From Acidobacteriota bacterium (GTDB lineage: Bacteria; Acidobacteriota; Thermoanaerobaculia; Multivoradales; J023), in the NCBI GenBank assembly GCA_039184055.1, contig JBCDBH010000008.1, positions 1 to 38,421 on the forward strand: a DNA stretch of 38,421 bases, in the 5' to 3' direction. Numbering within the stretch: the stretch's first letter is position 1; each line of letters begins with the position of its first letter. Both the position numbers and the translations under genes were made by a program. The notes under the pieces are model-generated. The model did not search any database and was not told where the DNA came from. It saw only the letters and a list, made by a program, of their open reading frames with translations. This document shows, piece after piece, positions 27,223 through 27,285 of the stretch.

Positions 27223-27256
27223 GACGTTGACTCCGATGGATACGAATAGGAAGAAG

Positions 27257-27279
27257 GCCGGGCAGCCAAGCTGCCCGGC
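27257..27279 (-). promoter_or_regulatory. Strong GC hairpin between the Cys-rich peptide gene and the giant gene (partial terminator / attenuator / processing site)
   Basis: GCCGGGCAGC-caa-GCTGCCCGGC is a perfect 10-bp stem. On the minus strand it is followed by the pyrimidine-rich CUUCUUCCUAUUCG, not a clean U-tract. Confidence 0.4.
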
Positions 27280-27285
27280 GTGCGA

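Follow-up and report, generated by a model that had tools for sequence, protein, structure and literature searches.

In the cinnamycin cluster, an inverted repeat located between cinA and cinM constitutes an S1-mapped attenuator (PMC5408092). An imperfect terminator is predicted after btmD in the bottromycin cluster, and such terminators following RiPP precursor genes have been described (PMC7113386). Genome-wide, the U tracts of high-GC genomes are reported to be shorter (PMC13613805). Here we analyzed a stem-loop in a stretch of 38,421 nucleotides from an Acidobacteriota bacterium (assembly GCA_039184055.1, contig JBCDBH010000008.1; the whole stretch is referred to as the window), which resembles the cinnamycin and bottromycin elements in that a GC-rich inverted repeat directly follows a small precursor-type gene in a high-GC organism. 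All genes around the hairpin lie on the minus strand in the order protease, PatG_C paralogue, peptide, hairpin, giant gene and cyclase-like gene, the peptide being the third gene of the unit:

31519–31544, minus strand: GGGCGGCC-cuug-GGCCGCCC with the 3′ tail UUUUCUCGUCUCG, a canonical intrinsic terminator at the end of the upstream M12 peptidase gene

29259–31283, minus strand: 674-aa subtilase of the PatA/PatG cyanobactin-maturation family (Peptidase_S8, PatG_D and PatG_C domains)

27598–29235, minus strand: 545-aa PatG_C protein, a protease-less paralogue of the PatA/PatG protease

27286–27582, minus strand: 98-aa peptide gene, with a variable leader (MRMPTQR...) followed by an invariant 12-Cys core from CCDG

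20677–27222, minus strand: 2181-aa SpvB / FG-GAP / RHS-repeat / Rhs-core protein, TcB-TcC-like, with a signal peptide, directly 3′ of the hairpin

18904–20673, minus strand: 589-aa squalene-hopene-cyclase-like (alpha/alpha toroid) protein, the last gene of the unit

The terminator at 31544–31519 sets the 5′ limit of the unit that holds the hairpin, and at the other end the cyclase-like gene (end at 18904) converges on an AlaDh/PNT gene; no regulator gene was found within the minus-strand unit. The 674-aa subtilase matched the NCBIfam model TIGR03895 with 498.8 bits, compared to a cutoff of 421. The TAG stop of the 545-aa paralogue overlaps the Shine-Dalgarno sequence of the peptide gene. In the giant protein, residues ~1895–2181 (20677–21540), which follow the Rhs-associated core, comprise a hydrophobic stretch and then a D/S/G/T-rich low-complexity segment, with no recognisable domain in this region, where TcC/Rhs proteins carry their toxin domain. 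Outside the unit, an AT-rich 11-bp palindrome at 33819–33847, TTCTCATTGAG-n7-CTCAATGAGAA, lies 37–65 nt 5′ of the ATG (33782) of an M12 (reprolysin-like) metallopeptidase gene, with additional TTCTCA/TGAGAA half-sites nearby, and looks like an operator.

Alignment of the peptide family delineates a variable leader, starting with MR(L/M/I)P.Q, and an invariant core with 12 Cys (CCDG...LTPYC). Such a leader and core, encoded next to a protease that scores above the TIGR03895 cutoff, may be those of a precursor, and processing is predicted. Cyanobactin PatA cleaves at G(L/V)E(A/P)S, and the motif G(I/V)xPS(S), found immediately N-terminal to the invariant CCDG core in the peptide family, appears to resemble this site. 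No Pfam or NCBIfam family matched the 98-aa peptide, a PDB profile search returned chance matches to flagellin alone, and the AlphaFold2 model of the peptide reached a pLDDT of 63. A word-indexed search yielded 9 proteins of the family, and an exhaustive profile search (1.84 billion representatives, about 15 billion proteins) retrieved a single cluster at 50% identity together with three distant small homologues (P0014, P0016 and P0017), indicating that the 12-Cys peptide family is very rare; its members consistently have a PatA/PatG-type protease gene as a neighbor. Its genomic context suggests that the peptide is a bacteriocin or RiPP.

Read as RNA, the stem-loop (minus strand, 27279–27257) is GCCGGGCAGC-uug-GCUGCCCGGC, corresponding to GCCGGGCAGC-caa-GCTGCCCGGC on the plus strand (27257–27279). 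Folding gave 10 uninterrupted base pairs, 9 of which are G-C, closed by a loop of 3 nt, 23 nt in all, with a ΔG of −21.3 kcal/mol; the hairpin is present in the MFE and the centroid structures alike, and no alternative structure competes with it in the folding ensemble. Sequence and fold agree with the preliminary description, which had reported a perfect 10-bp GC hairpin directly after the peptide gene; the gap between the peptide and the giant gene, given there as 64 nt, is in fact 63 nt long (27223–27285). The hairpin starts 6 nt past the TGA (27288–27286) of the 98-aa ORF, and 34 nt separate its end from the ATG (27222) of the 2181-aa ORF, so that the minus strand reads TGA, UCGCAC, stem-loop, tail CUUCUUCCUAUUCGUAUCCAUC, GGAG, 8 nt and ATG. 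The individual elements are as follows:

27280–27285, minus strand: 6-nt spacer UCGCAC between the peptide stop and the stem, unlike that in L015

27257–27279, minus strand: stem-loop, defined by sequence, folding and perfect-stem count, with 20/20 stem identity in L015

27242–27256, minus strand: interrupted U tract or pyrimidine-rich tail CUUCUUCCUAUUCGU, with a T-tract score of 1.69

27231–27234, minus strand: GGAG Shine-Dalgarno sequence of the giant gene, outside the hairpin and 8 nt 5′ of the ATG; GGAG is found in L015 too

The stem lies within the range of intrinsic terminators (~5–14 bp, GC-rich, with a 3–8-nt loop), and so does the position of the hairpin, shortly 3′ of a stop codon on the coding strand, where the hairpins of relatives are mostly found at +3 to +25 nt. 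The earlier wording, a pyrimidine-rich tail without a clean U-run, is accurate, as CUUCUUCCUAUUCGU has no U run longer than 2. Directly 3′ of the stem, the tail CUUCUUCCU holds 5 U in 9 nt, begins with C and has a longest U run of 2, which places it within a lenient limit of 5 T in 8 nt. The hairpin is the top terminator-like match in 20–30 kb.

Folding energy by itself is unremarkable for a hairpin in this GC-rich window. At 64.6% GC, a 44-nt segment of equal stability (sliding MFE) is found in approximately 30% of 150-nt blocks, and the 111-nt region around the hairpin gave a z value of −1.0, with 27 of 200 shuffles folding at least as stably. We therefore dropped folding energy as a discriminator, using instead perfect-stem and tail counts and shuffles at the level of the gap. 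Compared to dinucleotide shuffles, the fold of the 63-nt gap has a z value of −3.0. The window has 4 sites with a perfect stem of 10 bp or more and a loop of 3–8 nt, compared to 0.78 expected from Markov shuffles, from which the chance of finding such a stem in one given 63-nt gap is calculated to be ~0.001. Perfect stems of at least 8 bp for which the adjoining 8 nt include 5 or more T occur at 2 sites, compared to 0.1 in shuffles; these two are the hairpin and the obvious terminator at 36308–36333. When the same T-tail rule was applied to stems of at least 10 bp, 1 site remained in the window and 0 were found in 60 shuffles. The argument for the hairpin is thus carried by its compact perfect stem, its position and its conservation.

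Known families and repeats did not account for the element. A gathering-threshold scan of the whole window with Rfam 15 gave a single match, a tRNA, and no family for the hairpin; tRNA-Ile (GAT) at 34731–34803 (plus strand) is the sole Rfam or ARAGORN match in the window. The E-value scan of 27000–27800 returned just sX11, at 19 bits compared to a gathering score of 70 (E = 0.36). A REP-like repeat was rejected, exact copies of the 10-mer being present solely at the two arms in the 38 kb of genome examined; allowing up to one mismatch, there were 13 matches, compared to a shuffle mean of 7.5 and a largest value of 16, with 7 of 100 shuffles reaching 13. A regulated antiterminator was likewise rejected: there is no competing ensemble structure, and the sole candidate, at 27420–27429, was judged a coding coincidence. 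That minus-strand segment, GCCGGGCAGG, matches the 5′ arm in the same sense at 9 of 10 positions and is located in the invariant D-A-G-Q-A codons of the peptide.

We compared the DNA around every family member with retrievable sequence, a genome pattern scan and a metagenome pattern scan adding one locus each, and obtained 14 distinct loci. Thirteen of them have a strong stem-loop (ΔG −12 to −35) after the peptide stop; the exception is L016, which has no hairpin and a gap of 10 nt between the peptide stop and the next gene. The hairpins fall into about 11 unrelated sequence groups and usually start 3–25 nt past the stop. Seven loci (the window, L015, L018, L019, L021, L023 and L025), with 40–73% GC, have a co-directional SpvB/RHS gene after the peptide and hairpin, encoding an SpvB/FG-GAP/RHS protein of ~2160–2180 aa, with gaps of 63–142 nt and a PatA/PatG-type protease upstream, with or without the PatG_C paralogue. 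Between the window and L023, the giant proteins share 35% identity over 2013 aa. In five further loci (L001, L017, L002, L009 and L020) the peptide is last and a convergent gene comes next, the hairpin being the terminal terminator of the operon. A cyclase-like gene follows the peptide directly in the other two, L008, where a hairpin lies between them, and L016. The placement expected of an attenuator, a hairpin between a precursor gene and close co-directional genes, is therefore conserved, and the recurrence of the order peptide, hairpin and giant gene in 7 loci indicates a conserved feature of the system rather than an accident of the window.

The peptide-last loci also share their neighbors. 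Their convergent genes (L001, 10417–20333; L009, 4470–14421; L017, 6447–14195) are conserved, large and uncharacterised, and encode a 463–469-aa protein, TIG-domain proteins and a DUF6603 protein of roughly 1,500 aa, which suggests that this DUF6603/TIG set is a second recurrent partner module. In L017 (Acidobacterium MAG, 6249–6410), the homologous hairpin lies ~115 nt from the peptide stop, displaced by extra sequence that has no counterpart in L001 (10334–10380).

Conservation extends to the stem itself. In L015, the closest relative, the stem arms are identical at 20 of 20 positions, with an extra A-U pair and a different loop of 5 nt, and neither the spacer nor the distal tail is the same. 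At third codon positions, the peptide genes are 63% identical; taking this value as a neutral proxy, the probability of 20/20 stem identity by chance is calculated to be ~1e-4, and the stem appears to be under purifying selection. The intergenic gaps fold more strongly than their dinucleotide shuffles, with individual p values of 0.002 to 0.11 and a Fisher combined value of ~2e-8 for seven independent loci. As a result of G-U pairs, the sense strand folds better than the antisense strand in L019 (−23.0 vs −13.8) and L020 (−30.5 vs −22.2), and the single difference between the L001 and L017 stems changes U-A to U-G. Together with the U tracts of the low-GC loci, these properties suggest that the hairpin functions in the RNA of the peptide transcript.

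U tracts vary with GC content among the loci. L021 (40% GC) has a textbook U-tract terminator, AAGAGUUGUA...UACAACUCUU followed by UUUUUUCUUUU; in L023 (53% GC) a 12-bp stem precedes UUUGG, in L009 the hairpin is followed by CAUUUUUUAU (UUUUUU), and in L020 by UUUUGCC. In the high-GC relatives the U tracts are poorer or absent, which matches the genome-wide trend (PMC13613805). Within the window, the canonical terminators at 36308–36333 (plus strand) and 31544–31519 (minus strand) are followed by UUUUUC and UUUUCUCG, respectively, and the two have T-tract scores of 3.65 and 3.98, compared to 1.69 for the hairpin. A d'Aubenton-Carafa-type d-score, with an E. coli calibration that makes it useful as a relative ranking alone, was +3.3 for the hairpin, +35 and +42 for the canonical terminators at 31519–31544 and 36308–36333, and +7.5, +7.7 and +16.6 for L015, L023 and L021. 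On this ranking the hairpin would be a marginal terminator, a strength to be expected of a terminator that must let some polymerases pass. By E. coli rules, termination could be negligible, given that no U run exceeds 2 and the tail begins with C. Across loci that are few, partly related and confounded by GC content, hairpins tend to be weaker where the giant gene follows than where the peptide is last, and we gave this trend no weight. A coding-strand scan limited to the sigma-70 consensus detected no promoter-like site between the hairpin and the giant gene, whether in the window, in L021 or in L023.

The perfect-stem search also revealed a second element beyond the giant gene:

20620–20642, minus strand: second perfect 10-bp hairpin with a 3-nt loop, CCCGGCUCCU-gcg-AGGAGCCGGG, without a U tract

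This hairpin lies 34 nt past the stop of the giant gene, just as the first lies 34 nt from its ATG. It falls inside the ORF 18904–20673 if translation starts at ATG 20673, and is either another intercistronic hairpin or coding sequence; three cyclase-like homologues were aligned to locate the start of the ORF, and their N-termini are too divergent to place the hairpin. In L023, a 14-bp palindrome (14884–14914) is located 8 nt after the giant gene.

The hairpin is a non-random structure with the anatomy of a terminator at a conserved position. The reading we favor, with moderate confidence, is that it acts as a leaky intrinsic terminator and at the same time as a 3′-protective hairpin, leaving the protease-peptide message more abundant and longer-lived than the giant-gene message. 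Transcription would begin upstream of the PatA/PatG-type protease gene, past the terminator at 31519–31544, and polymerase would cross the protease, the PatG_C paralogue and then the peptide gene. With polymerase on the interrupted U tract CUUCUUCCU, the stem-loop would form in its RNA exit channel, leading to release of a fraction of the polymerases, and the 3′ hairpin would shield the resulting protease-peptide message against 3′-to-5′ exonucleases. The remaining polymerases would go on to transcribe the SpvB/RHS giant gene and then the cyclase-like gene, which start 34 nt past the hairpin with their own Shine-Dalgarno sequence but leave no space for a promoter of their own. With only 34 nt from the hairpin to the next ATG, expression of the giant gene is most simply explained by read-through. 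As a net effect, the peptide-encoding message would be stabler and more plentiful than that of the giant gene. We infer termination at the hairpin, its partial nature and the resulting stoichiometry.

Some of the same observations can be accommodated by a hairpin that acts purely in mRNA stability or processing and causes no termination, halting 3′ exonucleases on RNA that was cut by an endonuclease or terminated further downstream by Rho, such that the upstream protease-peptide segment outlives the giant-gene segment. We regard this as rather unlikely overall. It yields the same outcome, a higher ratio of peptide to giant-gene message, and it suits a U tract that is poor here and absent in L019, L025, L018, L001 and L002; the first two of these have the same gene order without any U tract, so that a stabilising or processing element fits equally well there. 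U-tract-less stem-loops are, in addition, common at high-GC 3′ ends and at exonuclease-trimmed Rho-dependent ends (PMC13613805). Against it, the lower-GC loci L021, L009, L020 and L023 carry textbook intrinsic terminators at the same position, the tail in the window passes 5 T in 8 nt with a slightly positive d-score (meaningful as a relative rank), and the giant ORF is translated from 34 nt on, leaving little naked RNA for Rho. The opposite alternative, an efficient end-of-operon terminator with the giant gene forming a separate unit whose promoter overlaps the peptide 3′ end or the hairpin, appears improbable. The five loci in which the peptide is last and a convergent gene follows (L001, L017, L002, L009 and L020) are in its favor, as are a TATAAT hexamer directly after the U tract of L021 and the gaps of 137–142 nt in L025 and L018, which are able to hold a promoter. 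However, the 33–34 nt between stem and ATG in L015 (33 nt) and the window are too short for a −35, a −10 and a 5′UTR with GGAG, neither the window nor L021 or L023 showed a sigma-70-like site on the coding strand, the score of the hairpin is far lower than those of the true terminators of the window, and peptide-giant synteny over 40–73% GC argues for co-expression.

If the palindrome acted as DNA instead, it could serve a dimeric regulator as its operator, or mark the edge at which a giant-gene cassette recombined or inserted, an idea prompted by the two perfect 10-bp, 3-nt-loop hairpins that bracket the giant gene at 34 nt on each side, and by related loci from which the giant gene is missing and a cyclase-like or convergent gene follows the peptide. 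This is very improbable, as the two hairpins share no meaningful sequence, the stem motif is unrepeated elsewhere in the window, relatives keep a hairpin with or without the giant gene, G-U pairs make several of the structures RNA- and strand-specific, and the unit is without a regulator gene. That the palindrome arose by chance in GC-rich DNA and has no function is scarcely credible: the ~30% of 150-nt blocks with an equally stable 44-nt fold and the 27 of 200 shuffles of 111 nt that are as stable would allow it, but stems of at least 10 bp are expected only 0.78 times per 38 kb, or ~0.001 per 63-nt gap, and neither the 20/20 stem identity in L015 nor the hairpins in 13 of 14 loci would be anticipated.

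On the reading as a leaky terminator and protective hairpin, the earlier claim that the arrangement is typical of attenuators raising structural-peptide transcript levels in bacteriocin/RiPP operons holds in part. What stands is a terminator-like hairpin between a leader-plus-core peptide gene and a co-directional gene, its placement kept in 7 loci, and a U tract degraded compared to the full terminators of the window. What does not is the functional context: the downstream gene is an Rhs-type giant instead of a modification enzyme, the peptide gene is preceded by those for the protease and its paralogue, and the hairpin is an operon-end terminator in five relatives. In a typical attenuated operon the downstream genes encode catalytic maturation enzymes, whereas here they encode the Rhs-type giant and a cyclase-like protein. 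The logic of making more substrate than enzyme fails for the protease and its paralogue: as upstream genes, they would have transcript levels equal to or above that of the peptide.

By itself, the hairpin is a regulatory element of a known and routine kind. It marks the probable end of the protease-peptide message, and from it the peptide and the giant gene are predicted to be expressed at different levels. The conserved gene set around it is of greater interest. The synteny of a PatA/PatG-type protease, a 12-Cys peptide, a terminator and an SpvB/RHS gene across distant lineages is apparently undescribed, a literature search for PatG together with RHS or SpvB having found no paper with both, and it suggests that a RiPP-like peptide and an Rhs cocoon protein are functionally linked. 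Tentatively, and as a possibility we would not rate highly, the hairpin may be the conserved ratio-setter of an undescribed cross-phylum system, in which the PatA/PatG-type protease matures a 12-Cys miniprotein that acts with a TcB-TcC-like SpvB/RHS cocoon protein, e.g. as partner, targeting factor or antidote. If so, the order peptide, terminator and Rhs gene would characterise the system and set the level of the peptide well above that of the Rhs protein. The hairpin provides a simple experimental handle on how the peptide and the Rhs gene are co-expressed.

Among known elements, the hairpin shares with REP/BIME palindromes an intergenic GC-rich palindrome after a stop codon, able to stabilise the upstream mRNA, yet its stem motif occurs at a single site in 38 kb and the hairpins of the relatives are mutually unrelated. 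Unlike at Rho-dependent ends, translation of the next ORF starts 34 nt further on, so that Rho would have little space to load. It resembles the canonical terminators of the window (36308–36333, plus strand; 31519–31544, minus strand) in having a GC-rich stem, 8–11 bp with loops of 3–4 nt, 0–25 nt after the stop; in contrast to their contiguous U4–U5 at the stem and relative d-scores of +35 and +42, the hairpin is followed by C-UU-C-UU-CC-U, ranks at +3 and has a co-directional gene within 34 nt. The U-tract-less 3′ stem-loops are similar in their high GC content, their location after the stop and their short or absent U tract, as well as in a position shared among homologous genes despite differences in sequence (PMC13613805); the 10-bp stem is short, however, whereas those of Actinobacteria are described as long (PMC13613805). 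The cinnamycin attenuator differs in having been S1-mapped, RiPP status and attenuation here being predicted from sequence alone. Compared to both the cinnamycin and the bottromycin attenuators, the protease genes here lie upstream of the peptide and hence are unattenuated, and the downstream gene encodes a 2181-aa SpvB/RHS protein in place of a modification enzyme; with protease genes upstream of the hairpin, the argument from stoichiometry is less compelling than for lantibiotic operons. As in the cinnamycin cluster, the precursor is not the first gene (cinorf7-cinA-hairpin-cinMX), and as in both clusters co-directional genes follow closely with no obvious promoter, the same effect being proposed, namely that peptide message exceeds the message of the genes downstream.
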